Shown here piece by piece: positions 4,884 through 63,307 of a DNA stretch of 64,000 bases; within the stretch, counting starts at the first letter, position 1; the number at the start of each line of letters is the position of its first letter. The stretch is taken from the NCBI GenBank assembly GCA_035636315.1, contig DASPZJ010000084.1, positions 25,401 through 89,400 of the forward strand. The letters are read 5' to 3'. The translations under genes and the position numbers were made by a program. The DNA comes from Thermoplasmata archaeon (lineage in GTDB: Archaea > Thermoplasmatota > Thermoplasmata > RBG-16-68-12). The notes under the pieces were generated by a model, which worked only from the letters and a program-made list of their open reading frames with translations, searched no databases and was not told the DNA's origin.

Positions 4884-4906
4884 CCCTCATCCGATGCGAG
4901 GCGGTC

Positions 4907-4918
4907 CCAATAAAGGTT
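4907..4918 (-). promoter_or_regulatory. TATA-like box for hel308-cgi121
   Basis: aacctttattgg on the minus strand, centred about 29 nt upstream of the ATG at 4883, consistent with a leaderless transcript. Confidence 0.4.
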
Positions 4919-4994
4919 CTCGGGGGAGGCGCGGGCCAAGGCGAACCAAGTTGGCCCCGGCCGATCGGACGGGTCGCGGAGCCGCCCCGCCGGT

Positions 4995-11490: not shown

Positions 11491-11616
11491 AAGCCCCGTG
11501 GTCTAGCGGCCAATCGTGACCGACTTTCGGTCGCGGGCCAGTGATTCGAGGCTCTGGATCGGTCCTCACGGACCGAAGGGAGACCTCGCGACGGCAGTTC
11601 GAATCTGCCCGGGGCT
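11491..11616 (+). tRNA. tRNA-Gln (anticodon CTG) interrupted by two BHB introns (11513-11540 and 11557-11581)
   Basis: Acceptor AGCCCCG/CGGGGCT and T arm GGCAG-TTCGAAT-CTGCC. Removing the 28-nt and 25-nt inserts gives a 73-nt cloverleaf with anticodon loop CTCTGGA. Both inserts fold as 3-nt bulge, 4-bp helix, 3-nt bulge. Confidence 0.7.
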
Positions 11617-11621
11617 ATCTC

Positions 11622-46746: not shown

Positions 46747-46800
46747 CCCGACGCAAAACGTGTCGCCTCCGCCTGACTCTCTTCGATTCTGGATGACGAG

Positions 46801-46808
46801 TATTTAAG
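46801..46808 (+). promoter_or_regulatory. TATA box (TATTTAAG) for the island metG
   Basis: Centred about 30 nt upstream of the ATG at 46834, consistent with a leaderless transcript. Confidence 0.45.
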
Positions 46809-46833
46809 TTCGCACTCTCTTCCTACGGGCACA

Positions 46834-48471
46834 ATGACGAAAATCGTCGTCTGCGTGGCTTGGCCCTACGCCGCGGGCCCGAGGCACCTCGGGCATGCGA
46901 TTTCGACGTTCATCCCCGCGGATATATTCGCGCGATACCACCGGATGAAAGGCGACCAGGTCCTCATGGTCGGGGGGAGCGACATGCACGGCACGCCGAC
47001 GATGGTTCTTGCTGACCAAGAGGGCGTCCCCCCTAACGTCGTCGCGGAACGCTACCACGCGCTGCATGCGAAGAACATCGAGCAGCTCGGCGTGCGGTAT
47101 GACCTCTACTGGAACACGGCGGACCCGCACCATAAGGCGTGGGTGCAAGAAATCTTCCTCGCGCTAAAGCAGAAAGGCTACGTCTACGAGGCAACGATGG
47201 TCTCCCCGTTCTGCACGACGGACAACCGGTTCCTCCCGGACCGTTACGTCGGGGGCACCTGCCCCCATTGCGGTTTCCCGCGTGCCCGCGGAGACCAGTG
47301 CGAAAACTGCGGCAATGTCTTGGATCCGTTCGAACTTATCAATCCCAGATGCGGGATCCACGGGACGACGCCAATACCGAAGGAGACGAAGCACTTCTTC
47401 TTCCGGCTCAGCGCATTCCAAGAGCGGCTCAAAAAGTGGGCCGAGGACGATAAGGAGCATTGGCGGCACCACGTGCTCACCTTCATGCGGAGCTGGCTCC
47501 GGGAAGGCCTCAAAGACCGGCCGATCACACGGGATCTGGAATGGGGCATCGAAGTGCCGGTTGTCGGCTACGAGAAGAAGCGGATCTACGTCTGGTTCGA
47601 GGCCGTGATGGGCTACCTGACCGCAATGAAGGAATTGTACCGCCGTCGCGGGAATCCGGAGGGTTGGAAAGATTTCTGGTACGATCCCAAGGCGCGGCAC
47701 TTCTACTTCATCGGCAAAGACAACATCGTGTTCCACACGATCTTCTGGCCCGCGATCCTCATGGGCTACGACGACGAGCTTGACCTGCCGTACGATGTGC
47801 CGGCGACGCAGTACCTGAACTTCTCGGGAGAGAGGATGAGCGCAGGTCGAGGACATGGGGTGTGGCTCCCAGACCTTCTGGAGCGGTTTGATCCAGACCA
47901 GCTGCGATACTACGGAGTCGCGACGATGCCAGAGACGAAAGACACCGACTTCGAATCGGAGGACTTCGCGCAACGGAACAACAACGAACTCCTCGCCGTA
48001 TACGGAAACTTCGTGCACCGCGCCTTGAAGTTCGCGGAAAAGAACTTCAGCCACAAGGTCCCGCCCGCGGCCTCGCTTGATTCGGCGGACAAGTCCATGA
48101 TTGGGGCAATCGAGGAGCAGTGGACGAAGGTCGGTGAGGATATCGAGTATGTTCATCTGAAGGAGGCGATGAAGGAAGCGATTCAGCTCGCCCGTCTCGG
48201 GAACCGGTATTTCGACCGGAAAGCGCCATGGGACCTAATCAAGAAGGACAAGGTCGCCTGCGGCACAGCGATACACATCTGCCTAAGAGTCTCCCGCTCT
48301 CTCGCGCTGGTCATGGCGCCGTTCCTGCCTTTCAGCTCCCAACGCCTCTGGCACGCCGTGGGCTACGACACAGACGTTCACCGTCAGCGGTGGGATGAAG
48401 CTCTCAATGACATACCAGCCGGGCAAACACTTCGGGTCGGCAAACCACTATTCTCGAAATTGGGTTCTTAG
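46834..48471 (+). CDS. metG: methionyl-tRNA synthetase (short form, no C-terminal appended domain), non-consensus KMSKS loop
   Basis: HIGH motif PRHLGH, zinc knuckle CPHCG...CENCG, anticodon-binding helices. The KMSKS position reads FSGERMSAGRG. Confidence 0.85.
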   Translation: MTKIVVCVAWPYAAGPRHLGHAISTFIPADIFARYHRMKGDQVLMVGGSDMHGTPTMVLADQEGVPPNVVAERYHALHAKNIEQLGVRYDLYWNTADPHHKAWVQEIFLALKQKGYVYEATMVSPFCTTDNRFLPDRYVGGTCPHCGFPRARGDQCENCGNVLDPFELINPRCGIHGTTPIPKETKHFFFRLSAFQERLKKWAEDDKEHWRHHVLTFMRSWLREGLKDRPITRDLEWGIEVPVVGYEKKRIYVWFEAVMGYLTAMKELYRRRGNPEGWKDFWYDPKARHFYFIGKDNIVFHTIFWPAILMGYDDELDLPYDVPATQYLNFSGERMSAGRGHGVWLPDLLERFDPDQLRYYGVATMPETKDTDFESEDFAQRNNNELLAVYGNFVHRALKFAEKNFSHKVPPAASLDSADKSMIGAIEEQWTKVGEDIEYVHLKEAMKEAIQLARLGNRYFDRKAPWDLIKKDKVACGTAIHICLRVSRSLALVMAPFLPFSSQRLWHAVGYDTDVHRQRWDEALNDIPAGQTLRVGKPLFSKLGS

Positions 48472-48545: not shown

Positions 48546-50117
48546 TCACACATTCCCGTTTTGAATCAAAGGAAGAGCATTTTCTGGGAGAATTGGACCA
48601 AATTTGAGGTAGGCTTCGTGGGCAGCGGCGCCATGTGGATTTATTCCTCGGGTACGGCCAACCTGTCTAAGAACCTCCTCCGTCTGCAGGATACCGATGC
48701 AATACGGAAGGAGCCTCGACAATTGGCCGGAATTCCTTTCGAGGAAGATCGACAACCGTTCGCGTTCCTCCAGTGGCAGTGGGATCAGTATGCGGTCGAT
48801 CGTCGATTTCAATCGACTGAGCCCGCCCAAAGCTCCAGCAAGCTGCCAAAGGCCTGCGGTCAGTCTCCGGACTCGATGGGAGATAGCAACACTCCCGGCC
48901 GCCTCATTCTTCTCCGACATCGAGAGAACCGCTGACTCGGCGTAGAAGCCCCACCCTTCAAAGCCGACAGGCGACTTGGTGAAGGAGTAAAGGGGAGAGA
49001 ACGGGGACTCAGCAGCGCGCCTAAGCTGTTCGTCGTGCCCGGGACAGACCTCATGGGCGACAGTAACTGTCATTCTGGCTCGGTGCTCGGTTTGTCGTTC
49101 TTTGGGCCACATGGTCCGCGGGAGCACAACCAGCCCTGGCGCATCGAAGCTGAAACCCATCGATGTGGGGGGTAGATAGAGGCACTCCGGTATGAACGAC
49201 TCTGCGAATAAAGGTGCACTCAGGAATAGTGCCCGCGGCCCGGTCTTGGCCAGAAACCGCTCCCTCACACTCTCCTTCAGAGTCGCTTCCGCGACCTTAA
49301 TCATGTCTAACCTCGGGTCGACAACGGAATCGATTGGGCTGCCACCATCGAGTCCTCCCGAGTACGATGTTGGCACGCCCCATTTCAGCAGTCTCCCTAC
49401 TTCGACGCGCAATCGCAATGCCAGCGATTTGAAAAGGCGGTCTGGGGTCATGCCCAACCCTAGAACTTCTTTGAGATACCAAACAAGACTGACGGATGTT
49501 GCATTGCGCCCCAGATTCCTTAATGGGAACTCGCGCCACCTCTCGAGACGTCCGATCACCTCCGAGCAAAGAGGTTCGGGAAGCCCACGCCATTGGGAAA
49601 GGCCTGCCAGCAGGCGTTCTGAAGTTGTCCTATCACGATCCGTAACCTCGAGCATCCCGGCCTTGACTCGTTTTTCTCCCCAGTCAAGCCACCGGATGCA
49701 AACTCGTAGACGGCTTTCAAGTGCAACTGACATGTCGTCGGGTAAGACGGAAAATCGAGATCTCAAGTAAAAGGGTAAAAGGGAGAACGCGCACAAATTC
49801 AAGTACACATCTGCCCTCGAATCGTAGAGCCTCTGTATCTTGTGTTTCAGAATTTGCTCACTTGCGAACCGTCGGACCTCTGCCAGTACGGTTCTGCCTG
49901 GGACTGAGAGCGAACCCCTGGCTGCCCTCGTAGTGGCATCGCGAAGCTTGACAACCTCAGCCCTCCACGCTTCAAGCCCTCTGGATGTGAGGTCTTCGGC
50001 CGAGTCCCATACCGGCGCGCCTTGAAGCGTGGAAGCCGTTGGCTGATATCTTTTCCAGAGAGAATCCGCTGCTAAGACGATGCTCAGTACGATCTTGTCT
50101 ATTCGAGCGAGAGGCAT
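48546..50117 (-). CDS. DUF885-family protein (metallopeptidase-like HExxPGH motif)
   Basis: 523 aa. VAHEVCPGHDEQL matches the DUF885 HE..PGH signature. Confidence 0.6.
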   Translation of the reverse strand: MPLARIDKIVLSIVLAADSLWKRYQPTASTLQGAPVWDSAEDLTSRGLEAWRAEVVKLRDATTRAARGSLSVPGRTVLAEVRRFASEQILKHKIQRLYDSRADVYLNLCAFSLLPFYLRSRFSVLPDDMSVALESRLRVCIRWLDWGEKRVKAGMLEVTDRDRTTSERLLAGLSQWRGLPEPLCSEVIGRLERWREFPLRNLGRNATSVSLVWYLKEVLGLGMTPDRLFKSLALRLRVEVGRLLKWGVPTSYSGGLDGGSPIDSVVDPRLDMIKVAEATLKESVRERFLAKTGPRALFLSAPLFAESFIPECLYLPPTSMGFSFDAPGLVVLPRTMWPKERQTEHRARMTVTVAHEVCPGHDEQLRRAAESPFSPLYSFTKSPVGFEGWGFYAESAVLSMSEKNEAAGSVAISHRVRRLTAGLWQLAGALGGLSRLKSTIDRILIPLPLEERERLSIFLERNSGQLSRLLPYCIGILQTEEVLRQVGRTRGINPHGAAAHEAYLKFGPILPENALPLIQNGNV

Positions 50118-50254
50118 CTGCTCACTCAGGTTATCGCGAAGCAGACCGGCTACCTAACGGCAGCCGCGACGAGTGACGAGGCGATCTATTCGGCGTCAAC
50201 GTTTCCGTCCTAGCGGGCTTTCTTGCAGGTAAGCAGGGCACCTTGGTATCCTCT

Positions 50255-51619
50255 TTATCGTGACACGGGGATTGAAACCGGTCTCGCCGTTCCTCGTTCT
50301 ACGAGAACCTGATTGATTGTCGCTCGCGTCGCAAAGTAGGCAAAGTACCCGACGAATATCCCCGCGACCCCTACCCCCAGGTAGACACCCATAATGTAAG
50401 CGACCGGAATCTGCACCAGCCATACAGTTGCAATGTTGCTATACATGTTCCACCAAGTGTGACCCAGAGCTTGTAACGCCCCTGAGTGGGTTGTGGTCCA
50501 AGCTACGAATGGTGCAGTGACTCCAACAACGACGATGGCCAATGCGGCTTCACTTAGAACCGACTGAGATCGTGTGAACAGACCCGCGATGCTCCCAGAC
50601 CAGATGGACACGCCCAAACCAAGCACCGTCAAGACGATTAACGTCATCAACCTGCCCGAGACTAGTCGGTTTCGGACTTCCTTGCCGTCGTTCCTTCCAA
50701 GACTGTGTCCCATCATGATTTGAAGGCCGAGACCAAAGTTGCTTGCGAGAACGAAAAGGGTCATTAGGACTACGTTGGCCACCCGGGCCGCAGCGAGCGC
50801 ACTAATCCCTAGAAGACCGATAAGCGCAGTAAAAACAAGTCCTCCAGTATAATCAAGCGCTTGATTTACAATTTCAGGGGAGCTCAGCCGCAGGATTGTT
50901 CGAGCCTCATCACGTCTTGGCCGTTTCAACTCGATTCTGAACAACCGCCGACGTCGAAAACACCAAGCAAGGAAGGCAAGGCCACCCAGCGTTGACAATG
51001 CGCTTGCGAGACCAGCCCCGGCGAGTTGCATGCCAGGGAAAGGCCCAAGTCCAAATATTAGCACGTAGGATAGCGAAATGTTGAGCACACCACTTGTCAA
51101 CACCGCATACATTCCCCACTTCGTTTCACCGTAGGTGTTGAAGGTGGTTTGCAGGAGCAAAAAGCCTGCAAAGAAAACAAGTTCTGGGCTCCGGAATTGG
51201 AGGTAGTGGAGAGCCCCGTCCACGACAGTCGGGTCCCTCGAAATAAGGACAAGCAGTGGCCGTGCGAACCACAAGCAAAGCGCTTCACCGAGCGTGATAA
51301 GAACAAGTATTGGGAACATCGTCTCGAGGGCGGCTTTTACACCCGCGCGATCGCCGGGCCCAAAGCGTCGTGCTGACACTATTCGATACCCGACGGCAGT
51401 TGCTGCAGCTGTTTGCGAGAATATCGAGAACACTGCTAAGGCCACTGCGACCGAAGCAAGGTTCACAGCTCCTAACACGCCAATGAATGCGGTGCCTATC
51501 AGATTCACAAATAGCTGCCACGTGGAACTCACTATCATTGGCGAGGTGAGCTTTCCGAGCCTCTTCCATTCTTGATTATGTGAGAACGACTTTGGCACTT
51601 TTTCGCCTCTTCGTCGCAA
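50255..51619 (-). CDS. MATE-family efflux transporter
   Basis: 454 aa with 12 predicted TM segments. The N-terminal LTSPMIVSSTWQLFVNLIGTAFIG is typical of MATE. Confidence 0.8.
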   Translation of the reverse strand: MRRRGEKVPKSFSHNQEWKRLGKLTSPMIVSSTWQLFVNLIGTAFIGVLGAVNLASVAVALAVFSIFSQTAAATAVGYRIVSARRFGPGDRAGVKAALETMFPILVLITLGEALCLWFARPLLVLISRDPTVVDGALHYLQFRSPELVFFAGFLLLQTTFNTYGETKWGMYAVLTSGVLNISLSYVLIFGLGPFPGMQLAGAGLASALSTLGGLAFLAWCFRRRRLFRIELKRPRRDEARTILRLSSPEIVNQALDYTGGLVFTALIGLLGISALAAARVANVVLMTLFVLASNFGLGLQIMMGHSLGRNDGKEVRNRLVSGRLMTLIVLTVLGLGVSIWSGSIAGLFTRSQSVLSEAALAIVVVGVTAPFVAWTTTHSGALQALGHTWWNMYSNIATVWLVQIPVAYIMGVYLGVGVAGIFVGYFAYFATRATINQVLVERGTARPVSIPVSR

Positions 51620-52712
51620 TTCCTGCTACCGGCGGTCCGCAATGCCGACAGTGCACATTTCGAGCTAACTTCAACAACGAGTGTTTGGTGTAATGCTGGA
51701 GGTCTAACGAGATTATGCCGTCCATTGTCGCGGGCCTGCTTATTCCTGAAAGATAGCGAGCGGCTTCCCAAACAGCCACGCTAGTCGTGATTCCTATCCG
51801 AGGAGCGAATGCTGCCTGAAAGCTACCCGGCCGAGCGGGCGACCGGAGGATGGTGTCATTGATTCGTTTGTCGGAGACCGCGCACCAGTAGCAAGCAGTC
51901 TTCCCAGGAACGGTGAGCGGTCCGACCCATGATGCAGTCATGATGAGCGAGGGGACTTTCGCTTCTAACGCGGCAAGGGCAACAGACTCAAATGGGGTAT
52001 CGTGACTCTGATCCAAGGGAAGTAGTCCAAAAGTGTTGAATACTAAGCTCACACCATCGAGGAAGGGTTCCAGGTCGTCAGGTGACCGCACTGCAACCTG
52101 GTGCCCATCAACCTGTAGCGAAGGGTCAACTCTCGACAAATTCCGTACGGCGGCCTTGACCTTTGGTTTCCCGATATCCTCGTTTGTGTACAGTATTTGG
52201 CGACTGAGGTTACTCAGCTCGACTCGGTCGGGATCTAATAGGACGATACCCTTGATTCCAATCCGCGCACACAGTAGTGCGATCCAAGATCCAACACCTC
52301 CGACCCCGACCACTAAAATCTTTCTATTCTGCAATCGCCTGTTGAGCGCTTGTCCAGTAGTCCCTTGAGATTCGAATGTGCTGAGAAAGCGGATTTGCCG
52401 ATCGTACAAGGAATCGCCTTCAGCCCTGTCCTGGCTTTTACGACGCGTGACTAGAGCATCGGAGCTTCTCAGGAAGTCAAGAGCTTCCCTCACGATCCCA
52501 GCAGAGAGCCCCGAGTAGCGCGCCAGCAGCGCTTCTGCACGCGACGCCTGCACTCCTCTGGTGAGGGCGAAAAAGAGCGTCTCTAGCCGCTCCGGGCGGG
52601 GAGACTTCATCACGAATGGCCGCTGTTCGACGACAGACCAGACCACAACTCCAGCAGACGACGGTGAGAATCTCCAACTTCGTTGGAGAGTGAGAACTTC
52701 GGTCCGGCTCAA
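51576..52712 (-). CDS. ThiF/MoeB/E1-like adenylyltransferase with about 115-aa N-terminal winged-helix-like extension
   Basis: YDRQIRF...ILVVGVGGVGSWIALLCARIG...LDPDRVELSNLSRQ, CxxC pairs CYWC and CRHC, and the N-terminal LSAGIVREALDFLRSSDALV. Confidence 0.8.
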   Translation of the reverse strand: MSRTEVLTLQRSWRFSPSSAGVVVWSVVEQRPFVMKSPRPERLETLFFALTRGVQASRAEALLARYSGLSAGIVREALDFLRSSDALVTRRKSQDRAEGDSLYDRQIRFLSTFESQGTTGQALNRRLQNRKILVVGVGGVGSWIALLCARIGIKGIVLLDPDRVELSNLSRQILYTNEDIGKPKVKAAVRNLSRVDPSLQVDGHQVAVRSPDDLEPFLDGVSLVFNTFGLLPLDQSHDTPFESVALAALEAKVPSLIMTASWVGPLTVPGKTACYWCAVSDKRINDTILRSPARPGSFQAAFAPRIGITTSVAVWEAARYLSGISRPATMDGIISLDLQHYTKHSLLKLARNVHCRHCGPPVAGIATKRRKSAKVVLT

Positions 52713-53767
52713 CGGTTACCCCCGAGGGCGAGCCGTCGCGGGTCCATTCCCATCGTAATCGTGTACATGGGGGCTTGCCAAACAGCATCCAATGACAAAA
52801 GGCTCGCTACTTCTCGATCCTTAATCGCCGGTGTTACGAGCGTCGCCAAACCGTAGGCGGCGCCGGTCAGGATGAATCTTTGTCCGAGGTAGCCGGCCTC
52901 AATGTACAGGTTCCGGAGTTCGCGGTCGTGGCGATAGCGCCAGCTTGCTTGATTGAAGTCCGCACAAAGGATTACGGTAAAGTTCGCGGTTCTCGCCGCA
53001 GGAATGCCAAACATCGCCTTGCTTAAGGTATCTCGCACGGGACCGGAGCGAATCTGAGTCATCTCGTGCTGTCGAGGATCATAGTAGTGGATTCCCGTGG
53101 CCACTCCATCTACCGAGTAGACTGCGACATAGAAGTCGAAAGCGGTGCCGAAGCTAGAGAGATAGTCAACGGGGTCCAGGTATGCCATGTTCCGAATGCG
53201 CCGAACTGGGGTCAGAGTCCACCAGAGAACGGAGGAAAGGAGCCCCTCTTCGATCGGTCGGTGCGAGTAGCCGCGAATGGTTCTGCGACTCATGAGTAAC
53301 GACCCCAACGTCGCGTCGTGCGTGGGGAGTCCGGGTGCGCTGAGACCTACAGTTGTCCCACCTGGAACGCGACGTTGTGGGGGGCCGTCTTCTCGGAGGA
53401 ATCGAGCCACCGCTTCCCGGCGAAGATTGGCGTCAGGATCTTGCTCGTCAAAGTACTTACATCGCCGCGACCAGAGATAATATTCCAAGGAACCGTGCCA
53501 TCCACGCTCCAACCAATGCCGCGCCCTAGCAATCTCCACGGGATCGACTCTACTATTATCCGCCCTCCACATAGCAGAAAGCCTCGACTCAAATTCCATA
53601 GCCAAAGGTGACGGCGTACGTTCTACAATCTTAGAGGTGACGTACTCTAACATCGCGACACGGCTTATTCGCGCCGTCCGCCCATTCCAGGCATCTGAAA
53701 GCATCACGATATCGTCATGTTCATCAATTGGCGGCCGCAGGACTGTTAGCGGTGGGTAGATGCTCAT
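52709..53767 (-). CDS. SagB/ThcOx-type nitroreductase-fold dehydrogenase (2)
   Basis: LMSRRTIRGYSHRPIEEGLLSSVLWW...LYIEAGYLGQRF. 4-nt overlaps with both neighbours. Confidence 0.7.
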   Translation of the reverse strand: MSIYPPLTVLRPPIDEHDDIVMLSDAWNGRTARISRVAMLEYVTSKIVERTPSPLAMEFESRLSAMWRADNSRVDPVEIARARHWLERGWHGSLEYYLWSRRCKYFDEQDPDANLRREAVARFLREDGPPQRRVPGGTTVGLSAPGLPTHDATLGSLLMSRRTIRGYSHRPIEEGLLSSVLWWTLTPVRRIRNMAYLDPVDYLSSFGTAFDFYVAVYSVDGVATGIHYYDPRQHEMTQIRSGPVRDTLSKAMFGIPAARTANFTVILCADFNQASWRYRHDRELRNLYIEAGYLGQRFILTGAAYGLATLVTPAIKDREVASLLSLDAVWQAPMYTITMGMDPRRLALGGNR

Positions 53768-54984
53768 TGTTGCGACTCCGCATTCAAATCGGGTAAACTA
53801 CTCACGTCTGCTTCGCCAAGCGCCATGGAAACAAGGTAGCCCTCTTCCAATCTCGAGATTCCCAGCTCGCGTTCGACCTCATCTTCGTTGGCCGGGTAGT
53901 CCATGAAGTAGCGGAGGCCAAAGGCTTCCGCAGCAAGGCAAACGCTGGCAGCTAAGTGACCTGCATCCATGTGCACTGTGCGAAACGTCCGGGGTTCCCG
54001 GTAACGATACATGTTTCTTTCAAACCGCGAAGTGAGTATGATAATTGCGCCGACCTTGAACCCAGCTCGGACATATGTTGCCGGGAACAACCGTCTCAAC
54101 TCCGCATCCTCTATACGCGTACCCCTGAGAAGTTCGAGCGTCACCGGGTTGATCGCCAAATGGTACCACCCCGGTTGTAGTCCGTGAATATCTATGCTGG
54201 CAATGTACACCTCCGTGGGGTGACGGGAGCCTCCGGATGGGCTTGTCCGGTGGAGTAGGGGTTCTCCGGCCCAACGCGTTCTCATGGAGCCGGTCTGGCC
54301 AAAAGCTATCGACACGATGGATGCAAGACACTCGCTGTCCAGGCGTCGCGATTTGGGGTGGCCCAGGAACAACGCAGACGCAGGTACGGGAACGAGACCA
54401 GGGGATGGTTCGGGCAAGGACATTCGGGACATGGCCGACGGATATTCCTTACGACGATCTCGGTCGGGTTCTGCCGATGCATATTCCGCCATACGCTTGG
54501 AAGCAAATCTGCTTCCTTCCCTGTCCGCTTCAACGAATTGGTATCCATACGTTAGGATGTGGTATTCGGCCGCCTCTGCCCAGCCTCTAGAGGCCCAGCT
54601 GAGGCGAAGTCTACTGCACCATTGAAGCGCCGTGTCCTTTGCGACGTCGCTGGCACGGCGAAGTAAACCTGCACGCAGGAGCGATGTCACCGCTCGCTCG
54701 ACGCGTTTCTTGGGCAGGTTCAAGCTGTAAGATGTCGACCGCACGACAGAGGCTCTCCTCTGTTTGCGCATGCATGCCACAAGTAACGTGACAAGGTCAG
54801 ATGTGAGCGCGTATCTCTTTCGGCTCAACAGGTCCTCCGCAACCCACAGCTCCTGGGTTAGGACAGATGGAGGGAGCAGGCGGACTGCTGGACTCGTGCA
54901 AATTAACTGCGATTGGGACCAATGTGCAGCTGTCGTCGGCTCCCTCCGGACAAAGGATGCGCACGGACCTTTGAGAATCGTCAA
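53764..54984 (-). CDS. SagB/ThcOx-type nitroreductase-fold dehydrogenase (1) with N-terminal wHTH-like region
   Basis: AAEYHILTYGYQF...HRTSPSGGSRHPTEVYI...VHMDAGHLAASV. TTG start; the frame opens at 55014. Confidence 0.7.
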   Translation of the reverse strand: MTILKGPCASFVRREPTTAAHWSQSQLICTSPAVRLLPPSVLTQELWVAEDLLSRKRYALTSDLVTLLVACMRKQRRASVVRSTSYSLNLPKKRVERAVTSLLRAGLLRRASDVAKDTALQWCSRLRLSWASRGWAEAAEYHILTYGYQFVEADREGSRFASKRMAEYASAEPDRDRRKEYPSAMSRMSLPEPSPGLVPVPASALFLGHPKSRRLDSECLASIVSIAFGQTGSMRTRWAGEPLLHRTSPSGGSRHPTEVYIASIDIHGLQPGWYHLAINPVTLELLRGTRIEDAELRRLFPATYVRAGFKVGAIIILTSRFERNMYRYREPRTFRTVHMDAGHLAASVCLAAEAFGLRYFMDYPANEDEVERELGISRLEEGYLVSMALGEADVSSLPDLNAESQQ

Positions 54985-55085: not shown

Positions 55086-55214
55086 TTACGTTGGGTCCCC
55101 GCAACCGCCTTCCTGCATGAGGGCAAGGCTAAAGGGCGGCAGCTCTTCGATTACCAGCACACTCTTCTCGTTCTTCGCTCGCTTTTCTGTTTCCTTTGTA
55201 CGCTTTCGGGCCAT
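55086..55214 (-). CDS. unannotated 42-aa ORF, candidate substrate/precursor peptide
   Basis: My own translation: MARKRTKETEKRAKNEKSVLVIEELPPFSLALMQEGGCGDPT. AGGTGA lies 5 nt upstream of the ATG, the TATA-like gtttatcg lies about 36 nt upstream, and the ORF ends about 100 nt before the first SagB-type gene. It is below the size cut-off of the ORF track. Confidence 0.35.
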   Translation of the reverse strand: MARKRTKETEKRAKNEKSVLVIEELPPFSLALMQEGGCGDPT

Positions 55215-55259
55215 TCGTGTCACCTGGGTCTGAAACGGTAAGCGGACGATAAACAACCG

Positions 55260-55287
55260 CGAATCTGAAATACAGATTTACGATTCG
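55260..55287. promoter_or_regulatory. compound palindrome CGAATCTGaaataCAGATTtacGATTCG upstream of the small ORF
   Basis: Inverted repeats AATCTG/CAGATT (55262-55267 and 55273-55278) and CGAATC/GATTCG (55260-55265 and 55282-55287), just upstream of the TATA-like box on the minus strand. Confidence 0.4.
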
Positions 55288-55397: not shown

Positions 55398-55727
55398 TCA
55401 GCTATAGCTAGACCCCTCCAACTCAAGAAGAGAAAATAAGCTCAAAGCGCGAGCTAACTTGGGTCGACGCAGGTCCGTAGTTCCCCTCTTGCTCGGACCG
55501 ATGAACAGCATGTAAACCACGGCCATGAGTTCCGGGGAATCTGATCGTTTTCCAAGGGCGATTTCTTGACTTTTCATTCGTGGCATGACACAAACGGCGC
55601 ACCCCTCTAGCGGGCAAACGCAAGTACCAGGGGCCCGCACCGATTCGCCAATATGTACAGGGTCTGGCAACTCAAGCCTAGCGTCAATCGTCTTCACTGA
55701 TTCGCGGCCTGGGTCTCTATCGTTCAT
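55398..55727 (-). CDS. 109-aa ORF with CxCx4Cx2C cluster (hypothetical)
   Basis: GTCVCPLEGCAVCVMP. No recognised family, and coding status is uncertain. Confidence 0.25.
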   Translation of the reverse strand: MNDRDPGRESVKTIDARLELPDPVHIGESVRAPGTCVCPLEGCAVCVMPRMKSQEIALGKRSDSPELMAVVYMLFIGPSKRGTTDLRRPKLARALSLFSLLELEGSSYS

Positions 55728-55776: not shown

Positions 55777-56091
55777 CTAGAACCCGTAACCTTGCAGGAG
55801 TTGCTTGACATCCGCATTGTATTCGTCTAGGAACTTATGACCTCGTTCCGTCAAGCGTGGCCCGGTCTGAACCACGAGCCCTCTCATCTCAAGTTGCTCA
55901 AGGTATCGTTTGAACGCTTTCCAATTGACGTAGGACCGCGCTTGAATCCTGGTTTTCCTGGGTTTCTCAGGATTGTTCTCTTCCTCCTCCAGGACCGCCG
56001 ACATAATGGCGACGGCGACTTCAATCTCGGACCGTCGCTTGTGCGTCGATTCTCCCCCGGGGTGGAACTGCAGCGAGACATATTTAGTCAT
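55777..56091 (-). CDS. small archaeal winged-helix protein (putative regulator)
   Basis: IQARSYVNWKAFKRYLEQLEMRGLVVQTGPRLTERGHKFL. Confidence 0.6.
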   Translation of the reverse strand: MTKYVSLQFHPGGESTHKRRSEIEVAVAIMSAVLEEEENNPEKPRKTRIQARSYVNWKAFKRYLEQLEMRGLVVQTGPRLTERGHKFLDEYNADVKQLLQGYGF

Positions 56092-56830: not shown

Positions 56831-56908
56831 CCTTGATTCGATAATGAGGAACGTTTCCGGGTCAGGAACCGACAGTTCAAACCCACTGGGTTTGTTATTC
56901 TCAATACC

Positions 56909-56918
56909 GGTTTTATCG
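56909..56918 (+). promoter_or_regulatory. TATA-like box (GGTTTTATCG) for the integrase
   Basis: Centred about 27 nt upstream of the ATG at 56940. It is part of a 13-nt motif, tcaataccggttt, repeated at 62200. Confidence 0.4.
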
Positions 56919-56939
56919 ACAGTACCATACGAGGATCGA

Positions 56940-58445
56940 ATGCAAACCCCAACACGGGCGGAACGCGAGGTCAGGCGCCAAGCCCTCATGGACGACGAGG
57001 ACGTTCGGCTGTGGAAACAGAACGTCGGCTCGGCGGCCACGGGTGACAACTACTGGCGCATGCTGGCGTACTTCTGCGAGCAGAAGGGCTACACGCCGAA
57101 GAGCCTCCTCGAACTGACGGACAAGACGATCACCGATCTCGTGCAGGCATACATGCACGAGCACGGCAACCACGGGGCCGTGCAGGCCAAGAAGGCCGTG
57201 GCGTCGTGGCTCCTCCACAACGACAGGAAGTTCACCCGCGACATAAAGACCCCCGAGGAGGTCCGGCTCGCCCGCCCCCGCGTCGATGACATGTTCATCC
57301 CGACGCAGGGCCAGTTGCGGCAGGTCTTCGACGCAGCCGACGTGCGGGCGAAGGCGGCCATCAGCGTGATCGCGTTCGCGGGCCAGCGTCTACAGGTCCT
57401 CGGGACGTACAAGGGGACGGACGGCCTCGTGCTCGCGGACCTCAAGGACCTCGTGATTGATGGGGGCAACGTCGGGTTCAAGAACTCCCTCGCGGCCCAG
57501 ATCGTGATCCGGCGCCCGCTCTCGAAGAAGCGCCACGAGTACTTCACGTTCGTAGGGCCCGAGGGGCAGGGCTACATCCTCGCCTACCTGCGGGAGCGGA
57601 TCGAGAATGGCGAGACCCTGACGCCGCGCAGCCCGCTGATTGTCCCCCTCCAGCCGAACCACAAGAAGCTCCTCACCGCGCGGTCACGCGAGGACAAGTT
57701 GCGCGAACTCGGGAGGAAGGCGAACGTGGCGGCGAAGATCGACAACGACCGCCCGTTCATCCGCGCGAGCAACGTGAGCGGGATACTCCGCAAGCCAATG
57801 ATTGCCGCGGGGCTCCACGTCCCGAAGGCCAAGGTGAACGGGGAGAAGTCCGACCCTTCCTACATCTGGCGGTCGTTCTTCGCCCACCAAGGCGAGATGG
57901 CGCAGGGACTTTCCGAGTCGTACCGGCATTTTTTCGAGGGTCGCAAGGGAACGGTGGCCGCCGACTACTCGCTGCACAAGGGCGTGTCCGCCGAGAAGCT
58001 TGAGGTGATGCGCAAGGCATACGCGAGCGTCCTCCCGTTCGTGGAGACCGAGCGGAGGCCGGTCGCGACCGAGACCCTCGCGCTGACGAAGATCGCGGAA
58101 CTAGAGAAGCAACTCAAGGACCTCAAGGCGGCGCAGGCGAACCCGGAGCAGATCACGATGCGTGAGTTCCGGGAGCAGGCCCCGATACGGGACGAGTTGG
58201 TGAAGGCCCGCACGGACGCGATGTCCCCCGGCGAACTGGATGCGCGGGCCGAGGCGGACCGGCTGGGGCAGGTCCTCACCGACGCCATGGACGGCGAGGG
58301 CAACTTCACCGAGAAGGGCGTCGAGCAGAGCGGCGAGGAGCCGCCGATGACCCGTGCGGAGATCATCGAGATGGTGAGACTCGGGATTATGACGACGGGC
58401 GAGGCGCGCGACCGGATGGGGCTGAACGGGAAGGAGGCCGCGTGA
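56940..58445 (+). CDS. int: tyrosine recombinase / integrase with long C-terminal coiled-coil extension
   Basis: Candidate catalytic residues in the expected order: AFAGQRLQVL (Arg I), YIWRSFFAH (box II-like R...H), FEGRKGTVAADY (terminal Tyr). Confidence 0.7.
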   Translation: MQTPTRAEREVRRQALMDDEDVRLWKQNVGSAATGDNYWRMLAYFCEQKGYTPKSLLELTDKTITDLVQAYMHEHGNHGAVQAKKAVASWLLHNDRKFTRDIKTPEEVRLARPRVDDMFIPTQGQLRQVFDAADVRAKAAISVIAFAGQRLQVLGTYKGTDGLVLADLKDLVIDGGNVGFKNSLAAQIVIRRPLSKKRHEYFTFVGPEGQGYILAYLRERIENGETLTPRSPLIVPLQPNHKKLLTARSREDKLRELGRKANVAAKIDNDRPFIRASNVSGILRKPMIAAGLHVPKAKVNGEKSDPSYIWRSFFAHQGEMAQGLSESYRHFFEGRKGTVAADYSLHKGVSAEKLEVMRKAYASVLPFVETERRPVATETLALTKIAELEKQLKDLKAAQANPEQITMREFREQAPIRDELVKARTDAMSPGELDARAEADRLGQVLTDAMDGEGNFTEKGVEQSGEEPPMTRAEIIEMVRLGIMTTGEARDRMGLNGKEAA

Positions 58446-58935: not shown

Positions 58936-59241
58936 ATGTCGCGCGGCCTATCGGCGAATCAGCGTCTCGTGATCGAGCAGCATGGGATGATCAACGAAGA
59001 CAACCTAATCACGGTAGCCGAGATGGCGGAGGTGAATGGGAAGACCCGGTACTTTCCACGGGGCGCGGAGTTCGGGTTTGCGAGTCACGGGACTTACGAC
59101 TACGACCGTAGATCGATATTCAGAATGATGGCTTCCTTGAAGAGGCGCGGGCTGGTCAGGTGGTGCAAGCCATACTGGAGGAAGCGAAGGGGTTTGTATC
59201 TCCGCCCCCCGATCATCACGATCCGGAGGGGACGGCGATGA
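58936..59241 (+). CDS. small winged-helix protein
   Basis: RRSIFRMMASLKRRGLVRW. Starts at the nucleotide after the previous stop. Confidence 0.5.
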   Translation: MSRGLSANQRLVIEQHGMINEDNLITVAEMAEVNGKTRYFPRGAEFGFASHGTYDYDRRSIFRMMASLKRRGLVRWCKPYWRKRRGLYLRPPIITIRRGRR

Positions 59242-59990
59242 AGGCGACGAAGAGCGAGCCTGACGGCGACTTCTGGGTCACACCGCTGGAGTATTCATCC
59301 GACCAAGTGAAGGAGTACGTGCGCAACCGGCTAACGAACGGGCACGGCTTCGCGATGGTGCTGTCACGTGAAGCGATACGTTCCTCGGAGACGGAGATGA
59401 AGATGTATCAGGAGTACTCCGCGGCAAGAGATCGCGGGGCCACAAGCGCCGAGATCGATACCATCGTCGGTAGCTACCCTCCGGACGCGGAGGAGTGGTC
59501 CGTCGAGTATTGGCTGGACTCTCCCTTACCCGAGGGGCACGAGCCGGGCAAACTCTCATTGGAAGGTAAGATTTCCAACCTCTGGAGGAACTTCTCCACC
59601 GACAAGAAGTCCCTCGTTGAGTGGACCGATACCGGTATGGTGGCCACCTTCTACGCCGAAGAGGGTGCACTCAAGTTCGCGCGGGACGTGTCCCAACTTC
59701 TCAAGGCGGCGCTGAACCGGAACGTGAAGGAGAAGGCGGTCTATCCCGTGGATTCTGGCACGATGACCGGGACCTTCACCGGGTGGCTCCGCGAGAAGGT
59801 CAAGAAGCCGTCGGACTTGTGGGACCCTGCTCCCAAGGCCGATGGAATCTGGGTCTACGGATCGACGGTGACCAAGTACAACGAGGAGACAGGATCGTCG
59901 CTCTCGTTCAGTGGGCTCTGTGCGGCTCTCGACCGGAAGCCACAGGTAAAGGACGGTAGGAAGCGGGTGCTGGTCACGCGGGTTGCATGA
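59238..59990 (+). CDS. hypothetical protein (250 aa)
   Basis: ATGA overlaps at both ends. No recognised domain. Confidence 0.5.
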   Translation: MKATKSEPDGDFWVTPLEYSSDQVKEYVRNRLTNGHGFAMVLSREAIRSSETEMKMYQEYSAARDRGATSAEIDTIVGSYPPDAEEWSVEYWLDSPLPEGHEPGKLSLEGKISNLWRNFSTDKKSLVEWTDTGMVATFYAEEGALKFARDVSQLLKAALNRNVKEKAVYPVDSGTMTGTFTGWLREKVKKPSDLWDPAPKADGIWVYGSTVTKYNEETGSSLSFSGLCAALDRKPQVKDGRKRVLVTRVA

Positions 59991-60577
59991 TGGACGAGAA
60001 GCCGAAGATGACCGAGGAAGAACTTCGGCGTCTGTCAGGACGCGCCGTGCGGCGTGTGGAACGGGAGAGTGCGAAGCCGGACCAGTTCGACCTTCTTGCA
60101 CTGTACGTGGATCAGGATTTAGACCTCCGGCAGATCGGCACAGAGTTCGGAGTCTCGAAGGACACTGCACGAACGTGGCTTCTTCAAGCCGAGATTCCAC
60201 TCCGGTCACGTGGTCCAAGATCGAGTGGAAGCGGCGGACTGGCGTCGAACGACTTCTGGTTCCGCTTGGCGGACCGGCACGTCACGTTCCGGAACATGAG
60301 CAGCACCCGACTCCCGGTGGTGGTCCAAGCTCGGATTGTCGCGTTGAAGGAAAAGGTCGCGGAACTCGTGGAGCGTCAAGATCGGGATGACAGCATCGGT
60401 CTCATCCGAAAGATTCTCGACGAAGCCGATCTTCTGGAGCGGTTGCTCAGCAAGTTCCTCGCTGCCCTTCACGAAGAGGAAGCGATCCGCGCGGAGTACA
60501 ACCGCCGAGCGTTGGAGTCCGCGCTTCGTCACGCGATGGGGCTTCCGCCGAGCGTCGAGCAGACTGGTAAACAGTAA
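59987..60577 (+). CDS. HTH protein (sigma-70 region-4 / LuxR-like helix-turn-helix)
   Basis: LDLRQIGTEFGVSKDTARTWLLQAEI. Confidence 0.55.
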   Translation: MMDEKPKMTEEELRRLSGRAVRRVERESAKPDQFDLLALYVDQDLDLRQIGTEFGVSKDTARTWLLQAEIPLRSRGPRSSGSGGLASNDFWFRLADRHVTFRNMSSTRLPVVVQARIVALKEKVAELVERQDRDDSIGLIRKILDEADLLERLLSKFLAALHEEEAIRAEYNRRALESALRHAMGLPPSVEQTGKQ

Positions 60578-60685
60578 ACAGTACGTTGGAGGGTTTTCCG
60601 GAGAGTTCCCCTATTGCTATAGTATAGACAATTCTATTCTGGCAAGATTGGAATAAACCTTCCGGACACCTGTTTACTGTTTACC
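60566..60685. repeat. 16-nt perfect inverted repeat (GGTAAACAGTAAACAG / CTGTTTACTGTTTACC) flanking an 88-nt AT-rich spacer
   Basis: Arms at 60566-60581 and 60670-60685. Each arm is itself a tandem AAACAGT duplication. The spacer contains ctatagtataga and two TTCCGGA palindromes. Confidence 0.7.
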
Positions 60686-61070
60686 TGCTCCTCAACCAGC
60701 GCGAGATCGCGGACGCCCTCCGCGTCAACCGGAACACGATCCGCCTCTGGTTCGACCCGGCGGCTCGGGAACGCAGGCGGCTCTCCCTGCCCATGTACAG
60801 GACGAAGCACCGGACCCGATGTGATCCACGTCGGCACCGTTGAGGAGTGCCCGAAGTGCGAGCGGCGCGGGTACGAGCGCTGTAAGCCCGAGTCAACCTG
60901 AAGACGCTTCACGTGTCGTACCAGTGGAACATTCGACACTACGACGGCGACCACCGGCAGAGCGCCCACAGCGTCTCGCTGCAATCGTGGCAACGCGCGG
61001 GGATCGTCTTCGCTTCGCGTGAAAGAGAGGACCAGTACGAGGCCGCGATGAGGGGGGACAGGACCCGCCG

Positions 61071-61159
61071 TAGAACTCCGGCATAGGACTACGCACGATC
61101 CACGCGTGGGAATCCTGCGTTTCCGTCGATAGGACTCCGGCATAGAACTCAGTAGGACT
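61071..61159. repeat. iteron-like TAGRACT repeats (five copies) around a CCACGCGTGG palindrome
   Basis: tagaactccggcataggact (61071-61090), taggactccggcatagaact (61130-61149), taggact (61153-61159). The palindrome is at 61100-61109 and recurs in tandem at 61239-61257. Confidence 0.65.
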
Positions 61160-61508
61160 GGGCCGCAGGGCGGGACTTTCGGAGGGGCGCCAGCGGTTTC
61201 GGAACAGCCTTCCGACGGGCCTAAATCATTGAGGAAACCCACGCGTGGCCACGCGTGAATTTTTCAGGCAAAAATGCCCTCACATGGAAAGGCGAAAGAA
61301 ACGTTGGTAGTCCAGGGCGACCCGCGCCAGGCACGAGCCGAGTACTATAGGGGGGATAGGACCGGAATCGACGTTCGCGGAATCGTGCGTGCGTCTGTAG
61401 ACCCCCCTTTGCCGAGCAGGAAGGCCCGAAAAGTTCTATGGACGTGCCTCGCGGCGACTCCAAGTCCGCCGCAAAGCGACCGAATTGCGTAATCGTGCCT
61501 GACCTCGG

Positions 61509-61550
61509 ACTGAAGCAGACTGAAGCAGGGACTGAAGCAGGCTGAAGGAG
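61509..61550 (+). repeat. four tandem 10-12-nt units ACTGAAGCAG
   Basis: Units at 61509-61518, 61519-61528, 61531-61540 and 61541-61550 (the last is the variant GCTGAAGGAG). actgaaggagagg recurs at 61793-61805. Confidence 0.65.
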
Positions 61551-62320
61551 AGGCCCAAAAATGTGCAATCTAGGCGTGGCGCCTGGCTGGCGGGCCCGAA
61601 ACTGCATGAAGCAGAGAAACACCGAAAAAACCCTCAAGAAGACTTCCTTCCCGTGCCCCCTCGCACAGCCCCCCCTCCGGTTCGCGATGCGTACCAGTCG
61701 CAATAGGTGGCGCCTACTACCCGCCCTCAAGGATTCGCCGTCATCGCTGCCGTCGGTTTCGGCGGATCGACGGACCAAGGGCGGATAGCCGGACTGAAGG
61801 AGAGGCGGGAAGGACGGGCGGCTGAGGGACCGTGACACATTGATATGCGCCTGCCACTTGTTTGGTTCGATAATCGAGCGCCCCGGTGATTTCCCCGAGA
61901 TCGGTCATTTCAGACGCGCCGATCGACCCTGCGACGAACGTCGCCCATCCTACGGAAAGGAAGGCTCGACTCAATCGCCGTGGGTCCGTCGCAACGCATG
62001 TAACGATCCGGTCCCGGCGCGCTCCTGGTGAAGTCGGACCTCACTTCGCTCTCGACCGACACGGAACTGGACCGAGAGCGCCACCGACGCCGACAGCCCC
62101 GCGCCTGAGAACTGCGAACGTGGGCGACGATCGCGGACTTTGATTGAGGCGTATGCCCCCGGCCAAAGCCGCCGCTGATTCTCGCCTGTGATCGTGTTTT
62201 CAATACCGGTTTTTTGAGTTTGTATGGGTGAACAGGTCTGCAAACGGCGCAAACGCGAGGGGAGGTGATGGTCGTGTCTCTCCGAGGCGCCGACCGCGGT
62301 CCGTTCAAGGGGGAACACCC

Positions 62321-63307
62321 ATGGAGCAAGATTTCCGTCAGCCCGAGGAAGCGACGCCCAAGGTCGAGACCGTCTATGTTGAGCCCCTCCGCGAGCGATT
62401 CCCATGCGGCACCGAGTTCGTCCGCGACTACTGGAACGCGGAGAAGACTAGCAGGCACCCGCGGACCTGCTTCGCGTGCCGCGTAATCCTCGGGACGAGC
62501 CGCGCATCGGTCATGCCGCAAGATTCGGTCGCCGCCGCGTTCGTCTCTGGCGTCACGCGACCGCTGCGATCTGGAACGAACAACTACCGCAGCGACCGCG
62601 ATTCAGTCGTCCACTACAACACGCTGGAACTTCTGCGCCTCAGGGACGGGACGGTCGTGCGGTCATCCCAATGCTGGAGCGCGGGATTCGCCTCGTGCGG
62701 TCGCGCCCGCGTTGACGTGGCTCTGCCGCTAAGCACCATCGGCGAGATAATCGGATGGGGCGCGGGCGAATCGTGGGCCGGACGGGACATTGTGATCTTG
62801 GACCACACTGAGAGCGAGGTGCTGTTCGCGCATGGAGGCCGCACGTTCCTCTTCGGTCACGACAACGGGAGACCATACCTCGTCGAACTCAAGGATCGCG
62901 TCGGCACGGTCTACGAGGCACTAGTCTCAATGGCCCCGCGCGAGGTGATTGGGGCACTGGCAAACGACGTTCCCGTTCTCCGGCAAGGCGAGTGGTGGCT
63001 GATCCGGCAGGAGCCTACGGAGAAGGAGCGCGAGTTCGTCTCGATCCGCGCGAGGTTCAAGGAAAGCGCGACGACCGGCATGAAACGCCGGCTGATTCGT
63101 CCCGCCATCGAGAAGGGATCGGCGCACACCGCTGGCGAGGTGCTCGACGCGGAAGGACGCACGTTCGTGCGAGGGACGGTCCGGCACGCGCGGCGCGAGC
63201 ACGAGCCCATCGCGCTGGGCAACGTGTGGCACCTCGCAGTCCGGAACGCGAACATCCTCACGGCATGGCAGGTGCCGCGGCGAGGACTTGGAGGAGGGAT
63301 CGACTAA
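62321..63307 (+). CDS. hypothetical protein (328 aa)
   Basis: ATG-initiated, with G+C-rich third codon positions. No recognised domain. Confidence 0.5.
   Translation: MEQDFRQPEEATPKVETVYVEPLRERFPCGTEFVRDYWNAEKTSRHPRTCFACRVILGTSRASVMPQDSVAAAFVSGVTRPLRSGTNNYRSDRDSVVHYNTLELLRLRDGTVVRSSQCWSAGFASCGRARVDVALPLSTIGEIIGWGAGESWAGRDIVILDHTESEVLFAHGGRTFLFGHDNGRPYLVELKDRVGTVYEALVSMAPREVIGALANDVPVLRQGEWWLIRQEPTEKEREFVSIRARFKESATTGMKRRLIRPAIEKGSAHTAGEVLDAEGRTFVRGTVRHARREHEPIALGNVWHLAVRNANILTAWQVPRRGLGGGID

Follow-up and report, generated by a model that had tools for sequence, protein, structure and literature searches.

Tiarins are trifolitoxin-like RiPPs, peptides of ribosomal origin that are modified post-translationally, and were first described as a family in a preprint of December 2025 (bioRxiv 10.64898/2025.12.02.691738, cited below as the tiarin preprint). 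The family was defined by genome mining for TfxB and TfxC, a pair of flavin mononucleotide (FMN) dehydrogenases that bear RiPP recognition elements (RREs), and the gene directly upstream encodes a short precursor peptide that has two motifs: a weak one of aliphatic and acidic residues in the leader and one that includes an invariant glutamine (tiarin preprint). Here, we compare these systems to a locus from a Thermoplasmata archaeon. The window, by which we mean the whole stretch of DNA that was analyzed, is 64,000 nucleotides long (assembly GCA_035636315.1, contig DASPZJ010000084.1, positions 25,401 to 89,400). On its minus strand, an unannotated open reading frame (ORF) of 42 codons lies upstream of an operon for two SagB-type dehydrogenases and an E1-like enzyme, and an earlier analysis (the original prediction) proposed that it encodes the substrate of these enzymes. 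We conclude that the ORF very probably encodes the precursor of a tiarin-type RiPP cluster in a soil archaeon.

The universal core of tiarin biosynthesis is the two SagB enzymes; ThiF-like enzymes, YcaO, and others are accessory (tiarin preprint). Trifolitoxin is derived from the 42-amino-acid TfxA and was shown experimentally to be a Trojan horse that inhibits arginyl-tRNA synthetase (ArgRS). It acts after uptake and trimming by aminopeptidases. Its glutamine is the residue that is converted to the fluorophore, its cysteine is heterocyclized, and the mature peptide keeps the glutamine and five residues before its arginine (tiarin preprint). If a tiarin cluster includes a gene for an aminoacyl-tRNA synthetase (aaRS), then the specificity of the synthetase matches the residue just before the invariant glutamine (tiarin preprint). 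In Pelagibius litoralis, the order of the genes is precursor, Nitro, Nitro, ThiF, NorM, and DUF885; the precursor ends with LALMQTCGDGDSDPGW; and the cluster includes a methionyl-tRNA synthetase (MetRS), with a second copy elsewhere in the genome (tiarin preprint).

A short gene upstream of the SagB pair

The ORF runs from an ATG at 55214..55212 to a stop codon at 55088..55086 and encodes the 42 amino acids MARKRTKETEKRAKNEKSVLVIEELPPFSLALMQEGGCGDPT, as the original prediction had described. The features of the gene and of the spacer upstream are as follows.

55086..55214, minus strand: precursor peptide gene, 42 amino acids plus stop codon (from the sequence, HMM matches, coding-type conservation, and the gene call at locus L076)
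55119..55160, minus strand: leader recognition motif V19-L32 (VLVIEELPPFSLAL), which matches "motif 1" of tiarins; presumed RRE-binding segment
55113..55118, minus strand: Met33-Gln34; Gln34 is the family-invariant glutamine ("motif 2") and Met33 is the specificity-determining residue
55089..55112, minus strand: variable tail E35-T42 (EGGCGDPT) with Cys38 and Asp40; likely site of secondary ThiF-dependent modification, of trimming, or of both
55220..55225, minus strand: AGGTGA, resembling a Shine-Dalgarno sequence, 5 nt 5' of the ATG
55249..55253, minus strand: TTTAT, a putative TATA-like element
55260..55287, no strand: inverted repeat and candidate operator, with 12-nt arms (55260-55271 and 55276-55287) that are 83% complementary (imperfect)

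An ORF of 42 codons is not significant by itself, so its status as a gene rests on homology. When we compared the peptide to 5.8 billion predicted proteins, only the peptide itself was returned, and neither Pfam nor NCBIfam has a family for it. We therefore sought close relatives via the neighboring SagB gene. Using the first dehydrogenase (SagB-1) as the query against one genome per species and JGI metagenomes, we obtained 75 loci with 29-49% identity over the best-matching segment; they are referred to here by numbers such as L001. Most of the 75 loci have a small ORF directly upstream of the SagB pair, and these small ORFs have in common a hydrophobic/acidic motif, an invariant glutamine, and a short variable tail. 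Homologous ORFs keep their position beside the SagB pair in more than 60 loci from several phyla. The precursors closest to the window's are IIIEELPAFDLALIQGCGDASDA (L001), FVIEELPAFELALIQGGGCGDR (L080), LLIEELPTFEFALMQMCGDPIGM (L040), LIIEELEPFDLALMQTCGDLV (L044), VLVEELPAFDLALLQGCGDVWDWD (L074), and VIEELPSLPLALEQGDWSSW (Paenibacillus).

We then built hidden Markov models (HMMs) of these peptides, leaving out the window's peptide, and searched all stop-to-stop segments in six frames from the window and the first 36 loci (n = 13,904). For both a broad model (E = 0.005) and a model of the closer subgroup (E = 2.6e-8, 33.5 bits), this ORF was the sole match within the window. Furthermore, the ORF is conserved in the way that coding sequence is. 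Across the 15-codon motif LVIEELPPFSLALMQ, comparison to 13 relatives gave 68, 20, and 133 nucleotide differences at codon positions 1, 2, and 3, and a different codon was used at 94 of 134 identical residues. The original prediction had suggested looking for a short ORF at the same position with a bias towards synonymous changes, and the pattern here is of that kind. Also, in the public assembly for L076, the gene caller independently annotated the same 42-amino-acid gene (18253-18381). The small ORF is a real coding gene, and the HMM matches, together with the homologous ORFs beside homologous SagB-SagB operons, bear out the proposal that it is the substrate peptide of the SagB/E1 operon and a RiPP precursor.

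Translation may begin at either of two codons. The AGGTGA, an in-frame GTG at 55223 that would add three residues (a 45-amino-acid product), the TATA-like element, and the palindrome at 55260-55287 are all present as originally reported. The center of the TTTAT lies 27.5 nt upstream of the GTG and 36.5 nt upstream of the ATG. Two other genes in the window have TATA-like elements 28-30 nt upstream of their ATGs: in the MetRS gene (46790-46834, plus strand) the distance from the center is 30 nt, and in the Hel308 gene (4883-4930, minus strand) it is 28.5 nt. Such spacings point to frequent use of leaderless transcripts by this archaeon. Because the spacing to the GTG matches that in the MetRS and Hel308 genes, a leaderless 45-amino-acid product from GTG 55223 is as plausible as a Shine-Dalgarno-led product from ATG 55214. 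The choice of start site does not affect our conclusions about the precursor because the N terminus of the leader is not conserved. The inverted repeat is upstream of the precursor's promoter-like element. The spacer was originally described as low in GC, and there is a dip, which is modest (0.50-0.54, versus about 0.57-0.60 in the surroundings). Rfam identified no RNA family in the spacer, and a scan for sigma-70 promoters found nothing; the host is archaeal, so this result is uninformative.

The conservation of the precursors, which range from 22 to 65 amino acids, is confined to the linear motif and the glutamine. The window's VLVIEELPPFSLAL aligns with the IEELPAFDLAL-type motifs of L001, L026, L033, L040, L043, L044, L060, L074, L080, and L082-84, and the glutamine is invariant in all of the precursors that we found. 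In the tail, relatives from clusters with ThiF share CGD or an acidic residue after the glutamine. The two glycines in the window's tail are not conserved: where the window has QEGGCGD, the relatives have QGCGD, QTCGD, QMCGD, QGGGCGD, QGD, QHDQ, or QSSAY. Judging from this alignment, the GG is a variable glycine spacer and not a conserved cleavage site. An acidic residue (Asp or Glu) is found 1-6 residues after the glutamine in every ThiF-bearing precursor among L001-L084 and the portion of the preprint's operon table that was examined. Precursors without ThiF also have acidic residues, so we consider this correlation as a lead only.

Some clusters have two precursors. In L040, and also in L042, one precursor gene (7087-7323, plus strand) precedes SagB-1 and another (9076-9231, plus strand) lies between the SagB genes. 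Both have Met before the glutamine, with different tails (MQMCGDPIGM versus MQQCADNGGF). The position can also vary: L001, from a Pyrinomonadaceae metagenome-assembled genome (MAG), is among the closest genome relatives of SagB-1, and its precursor IIIEELPAFDLALIQGCGDASDA is encoded at 10955-10728 on the opposite strand (minus), downstream of DUF885 and not upstream of the SagB genes.

The operon proteins and the linked methionyl-tRNA synthetase

Five genes on the same strand lie downstream of the precursor gene, and a MetRS gene, convergent with the operon, is found just beyond the end of the DUF885 gene.

53764..54984, minus strand: SagB-type FMN dehydrogenase 1 (TfxB position), with an N-terminal RRE-like domain (from the AlphaFold2 model and Foldseek)
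52709..53767, minus strand: SagB-type FMN dehydrogenase 2 (TfxC position); TIGR03605, 79.6 bits, cutoff 78.4
51576..52712, minus strand: MccB/PaaA-like adenylating enzyme of the ThiF family, with an N-terminal peptide clamp (RRE); Pfam ThiF, 2.5e-36
50255..51619, minus strand: MATE efflux transporter; predicted export or self-protection
48546..50117, minus strand: DUF885 protein with an HEVCPGH motif; Pfam DUF885, 36.3 bits, cutoff 32.4; putative metallopeptidase for removal of the leader or tail
46834..48471, plus strand: methionyl-tRNA synthetase, archaeal type; NF001100, 592.8 bits, cutoff 587; predicted immunity or target-copy gene

In the AlphaFold2 model of SagB-1 (pLDDT of 87), residues 27-110 form four strands and three helices ahead of the nitroreductase domain. 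The top Foldseek match is ThcOx, which aligns over about 400 columns, or nearly full length, and this alignment takes in the N-terminal RRE-like domains; the match to McbC is with the nitroreductase part. Residues 1-20 are disordered in the model and are absent from the homologs, so translation may in fact begin downstream of the TTG at 54984. SagB-2 is 40% identical to the Thermus protein WP_014510989.1 (NC_017273.1, 1198-2268), which was used as a homolog of TfxC in the tiarin preprint.

The ThiF-like protein has an N-terminal extension of about 100 residues, and its best match by sequence in the PDB is MccB. Its nucleotide-binding residues (G136, G138, and G141), R171-Q172, and four cysteines (C274, C277, C355, and C358) are invariant in 27 homologs. 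In its AlphaFold model (pLDDT of 90), the N-terminal domain also forms four strands and three helices. Foldseek ranks MccB first, followed by PaaA, with alignments of about 360 columns (full length), versus only the adenylation domain of about 265 columns for ThiF and MoeB. Also, its NCBIfam scores for ThiF, MoeB, and UbaA are all far below the cutoffs. Because MccB and PaaA match it at full length and ThiF and MoeB match only the adenylation domain, we consider that this protein is a RiPP-type peptide-binding adenylating enzyme and not an E1 for ubiquitin-like proteins. Pfam does not identify an RRE family at the N termini of SagB-1, SagB-2, or ThiF, just weak matches to winged-helix families, so our evidence for RREs rests on the structure models.

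The DUF885 protein has no relative by sequence in the PDB. DUF885 co-occurs with the clusters of Pelagibius, Lactococcus, Thermus, L001, L026, L033, L037, L040, L060, and L080. In clusters with both ThiF and DUF885, the precursors have 1-8 further residues beyond the acidic residue that follows the glutamine. Most clusters with ThiF only have just one residue beyond the acidic one, as in the LQHDQ of Chlamydiae, RQDC, LLQEC, and VQYDVDC. This difference hints that DUF885 may trim the tail of the precursor.

We found no YcaO among the five operon proteins (48.5-55.0 kb) or the flanking ORFs that we scanned, no C39-peptidase ABC exporter among the operon proteins, and no GNAT immunity gene among the flanking ORFs scanned. 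A related ThiF-type cluster (L083), whose precursor ends with NLAMLQGHAPEAI, does have a gene for a GNAT acetyltransferase (10174-10722, minus strand) directly after the MATE gene, which fits the GNAT immunity mechanism that has been reported for tiarins.

The best match for the window's MetRS in the PDB is the enzyme from Pyrococcus abyssi (1RQG), and the window's protein is without the C-terminal appended domain of that enzyme. In the loci that carry a gene for a class I aaRS, the specificity of the synthetase and the residue before the glutamine agree as follows.

Window: Met before Gln; MetRS
L040/L042 (two precursors): Met before Gln; MetRS, convergent after DUF885 as in the window
L060/L063: Met before Gln; MetRS
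L037/L038: Val before Gln; valyl-tRNA synthetase (ValRS), 887 bits, cutoff 738
L046: Val before Gln; ValRS, 1255 bits, cutoff 900
L004: Ile before Gln; isoleucyl-tRNA synthetase (IleRS)
L080/L081: Ile before Gln; IleRS

The rule holds for all 7 of these dereplicated loci (permutation P = 1/210). Nor did we find a MetRS in any examined locus whose precursor has a residue other than Met before the glutamine. Given the Met-Gln motif and the cluster-linked MetRS gene, we predict, by analogy with the described members, that the product blocks MetRS.

Family assignment, alternatives, and host

The locus resembles the tiarins in the following features. Two Nitroreductase/SagB proteins are adjacent; SagB-1 has an RRE-like domain, according to the structure model; a short precursor with the leader motif and the invariant glutamine is encoded beside the pair; and the residue before the glutamine (Met33) corresponds to the specificity of the cluster's aaRS (MetRS). 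Several members from the preprint are among the matches to the window's SagB-1, including Paenibacillus sp. PAMC 26794 (L033), P. sediminis (L026), and a plasmid of Thermus thermophilus (H1/L085), as well as Rhizocola, Dactylosporangium, Kribbella, and Saccharothrix luteola. On the Thermus plasmid pTHTHE1601, counterparts of all five operon proteins of the window occur in the same order (31-41% identity). The window's peptide aligns with the precursors in Supplementary Data 1 of the preprint and is absent from the preprint's list of precursors.

Several points weigh against this assignment. The tiarin family rests on a single preprint (tiarin preprint), and trifolitoxin is the only member that has been characterized; the structure of its chromophore is under revision. 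When the plasmid collection was searched by tblastn with TfxA of Rhizobium anhuiense, there were no matches, so the comparison of the window's pair covers the Thermus and Paenibacillus pairs that are listed in the preprint. The nearest relatives of SagB-1 are only 44-51% identical. In TfxA, the glutamine is followed by Gly-Cys, while the window's peptide has Glu-Gly-Gly before the cysteine, so the chemistry may differ. The identical cluster is present on four other public metagenomic contigs (100% identity over 12.5 kb), on one of which a gene caller had annotated the 42-amino-acid ORF, and since the contigs have no polymorphism, a within-population test of the ratio of nonsynonymous to synonymous substitution rates was ruled out. 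As for the synthetase, three loci with Met-Gln (L015, L050, and L051) have no MetRS in the flanks that we fetched, which is consistent with the report that only some tiarin clusters carry an aaRS (tiarin preprint). Also, the MetRS beside the operon is of the archaeal type and may be the only copy, with a housekeeping role.

If the cluster does make a tiarin, then a plausible pathway can be outlined by analogy with trifolitoxin. The two SagB-type dehydrogenases and the MccB-like ThiF enzyme would each bind the leader motif VLVIEELPPFSLAL through their RRE domains. The dehydrogenases would turn Gln34 and its neighbors into the heterocyclic chromophore of the family. The ThiF-like enzyme, with ATP, might activate a carboxylate of the tail (Glu35, Asp40, or the C terminus) for a secondary modification in which Cys38 is possibly involved. 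We propose this step because ThiF-bearing precursors have an acidic residue after the glutamine and because RiPP ThiF enzymes adenylate carboxylates; both the activation of the tail and the role of Cys38 as a possible nucleophile should be viewed as a lead only. DUF885 would take off the leader, trim the tail, or both, and the MATE pump would export the product. A sensitive cell would import the peptide, and its aminopeptidases would trim it to a Met-derived warhead that inhibits MetRS. The producer would be protected by the cluster-linked MetRS together with export.

A bolder proposal, which we consider possible but doubtful, is that the sub-clade with ThiF and DUF885 makes a chemically new kind of tiarin. 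The ThiF enzyme would activate the acidic residue after the glutamine (Asp40 or Glu35), perhaps after trimming by DUF885, and this would lead to a second ring (for example, an imide or, with Cys38, a thiolactone) or to an added nucleotide. The window's product would then be an archaeal Trojan-horse antibiotic directed at MetRS, and its cluster, bacterial in origin, would have taken on the archaeal-type MetRS of the host as an immunity gene.

Of the alternatives, the one that fares best is that the cluster is like that of microcin C: the MccB-like enzyme would nucleotidylate the C terminus of the peptide, perhaps after trimming, and the warhead would be a peptidyl-nucleotide and not a heterocycle derived from the glutamine. 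MccB is the closest solved relative by both sequence and fold, microcin C likewise inhibits an aaRS as a Trojan horse, and all of the ThiF-bearing clusters in the set described above have an acidic residue shortly after the glutamine. However, there is no C-terminal asparagine: the window's peptide ends with Thr, and its relatives end with Q, C, W, L, Y, A, or M. In addition, the specificity of the aaRS follows the residue before the glutamine and not the C-terminal residue, and the whole family has the two SagB enzymes as its core, with ThiF as an accessory. Overall, we think that this explanation is unlikely.

The original prediction offered two readings of the peptide. In the first, it is a RiPP precursor with a double-glycine leader that is cut after G36-G37, leaving a five-residue core with a cysteine (CGDPT) that the SagB and E1-like enzymes would modify. 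That it is a RiPP precursor has held up. The cleavage at GG is very improbable, even though a GG is present after a hydrophobic/acidic segment and the tail has a cysteine, like the one that is heterocyclized in trifolitoxin. The GG varies among the relatives; the operon lacks both a C39-peptidase ABC transporter and YcaO; and the invariant glutamine and the aaRS-matching residue (Met33-Gln34) precede the GG and would be discarded, whereas mature trifolitoxin contains the glutamine and the five residues before its arginine.

In the second reading, the peptide is a mini ubiquitin-like tag or sulfur carrier, akin to ThiS, MoaD, or SAMP, with a GG that DUF885 would expose at the C terminus for adenylation by the E1-like enzyme. 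The operon does encode an enzyme of the E1 superfamily with intact nucleotide-binding and Zn-Cys motifs as well as a putative peptidase. But 42 residues are too few for a beta-grasp fold, the homologs of 22-65 amino acids share just a linear motif and the glutamine without the GG, the E1-like protein matches MccB and PaaA, whose substrates are linear ribosomal peptides, over its full length (including the clamp) versus about 265 columns for ThiF and MoeB, and many members of the family have no ThiF gene at all. We find the carrier reading scarcely credible. One element of it may survive: the E1-like enzyme may adenylate a carboxylate of the tail, possibly after trimming by DUF885.

Finally, we give almost no credence to the idea that this is a chance ORF in a regulatory spacer that is not translated: short ORFs are common, and the protein search and the family databases recovered nothing else, but the specific HMM matches, the homologous ORFs at a conserved position in so many loci, the bias of substitutions towards the third codon position, and the fit to the aaRS rule all contradict it.

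Turning to the host, the window is archaeal: it encodes archaeosine synthase ArcS (above the NCBIfam cutoff) and a Hel308-type DNA helicase (NF002654, 867 bits, just below the cutoff of 887). The nearest relatives of the biosynthetic proteins (48546-54984, minus strand) are bacterial, from Pyrinomonadaceae and Thermus, and the linked MetRS is archaeal in type. This suggests that the cluster was acquired horizontally and that the aaRS was recruited locally.

One neighboring gene may be involved in regulation:

55777..56091, minus strand: HTH_45/Sso10a-like winged-helix protein, candidate regulator, 560 nt upstream of the precursor

This gene and the inverted repeat at 55260-55287 form a candidate regulator-operator pair. 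Between the HTH_45 gene and the precursor lies an ORF of 109 amino acids (55398-55727, minus strand) with a Cys-rich segment (CVCPLEGCAVC) and a gene call in 3 of 4 assemblies. Neither Pfam nor NCBIfam places it in a family, none of the loci that we fetched has a homolog, and there is a terminator-like hairpin (55455-55439) within its 3' part. Farther away, Pfam and NCBIfam likewise assign no family to a 533-amino-acid ORF (56844-58445, plus strand) or to a run of ORFs of about 200 amino acids (59160-62521). At 11535-11617 (plus strand), ARAGORN gives a tRNA-like gene with an undetermined two-base anticodon, and Rfam at its gathering threshold does not confirm it.

Comparison with known systems

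We regard the window's cluster as a new archaeal member of the tiarins, of the MetRS type. Because the family was described in December 2025, this is not a new kind of system. Nevertheless, with this assignment a 129-nt ORF that had no annotation becomes the central gene of an antibiotic cluster, and sequence alone yields a testable prediction of the target, MetRS. It also extends the producers of tiarins to a soil archaeon, and the aaRS rule is replicated independently on metagenomic and MAG loci from outside of the preprint's RefSeq set. The branch with ThiF and DUF885 is the likeliest place to find new enzymology.

We considered two other classes of peptide. A thiazole/oxazole-modified microcin was ruled against since no YcaO is found among the operon proteins or the flanking ORFs scanned. 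Similarly, ThcOx and McbC, from the cyanobactin and microcin B17 systems, oxidize azolines that are formed by a YcaO cyclodehydratase, and the window's operon is without YcaO. An oxazolone formed by an OxzB-like ThiF-nitroreductase, as suggested by the C-terminal tyrosine of actinomycete precursors, was also rejected for this locus: the actinomycete clusters do not have ThiF, and the window's peptide ends with threonine.

Compared to microcin C7, the window's ThiF-like protein has the two-domain build of MccB, with a peptide clamp and an adenylation domain with Zn-Cys motifs, and MccB is its closest solved structure. The substrate of MccB is a short peptide made by the ribosome, and the resulting product inhibits an aaRS as a Trojan horse. 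However, MccA is a heptapeptide that ends with asparagine and does not need SagB enzymes, while the window's peptide has a long leader and a Thr at its end and has dehydrogenases as the core enzymes.

The enzymes PaaA (pantocin A), GrcB (thiolactone), EnfB (cyclic imide), and IndF (indolylamide) resemble the window's in combining an RRE with ThiF. RiPP ThiF enzymes adenylate a side-chain or C-terminal carboxylate, which is then trapped by an internal nucleophile (PMC12596934). The window's tail offers carboxylates (Glu35, Asp40, and the C terminus) and a possible nucleophile (Cys38). Unlike in the window, ThiF does not occur alongside a pair of SagB dehydrogenases in any of these systems.

Trifolitoxin, from R. 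anhuiense T24, also has a 42-amino-acid precursor directly upstream of two RRE-bearing SagB-type FMN dehydrogenases, an invariant glutamine near the C terminus, a MATE exporter, and a residue before the glutamine that matches the cluster's aaRS. The window lacks YcaO, the third dehydrogenase (TfxF), the TfxG kinase, and GNAT and instead has an MccB-like ThiF and DUF885; also, its predicted target is MetRS, not ArgRS, and its host is an archaeon.

The window's order of precursor, SagB, SagB, ThiF, MATE/NorM, and DUF885 is shared by three clusters from the preprint's list: Pelagibius litoralis, Lactococcus sp. SK2-659, and pTHTHE1601 of Thermus thermophilus. Their precursors have the form IEELPxFxLAL-x-Q-(x)-CGD, and Pelagibius shares with the window both the Met-Gln motif and the cluster MetRS. 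The identity to the Thermus proteins is only 31-41%, and Pelagibius and Lactococcus were compared through the preprint's tables only. Unlike in the precursors of these three bacterial hosts, the N-terminal half of the window's peptide is strongly basic, and an additional Glu-Gly-Gly lies between the glutamine and the cysteine.

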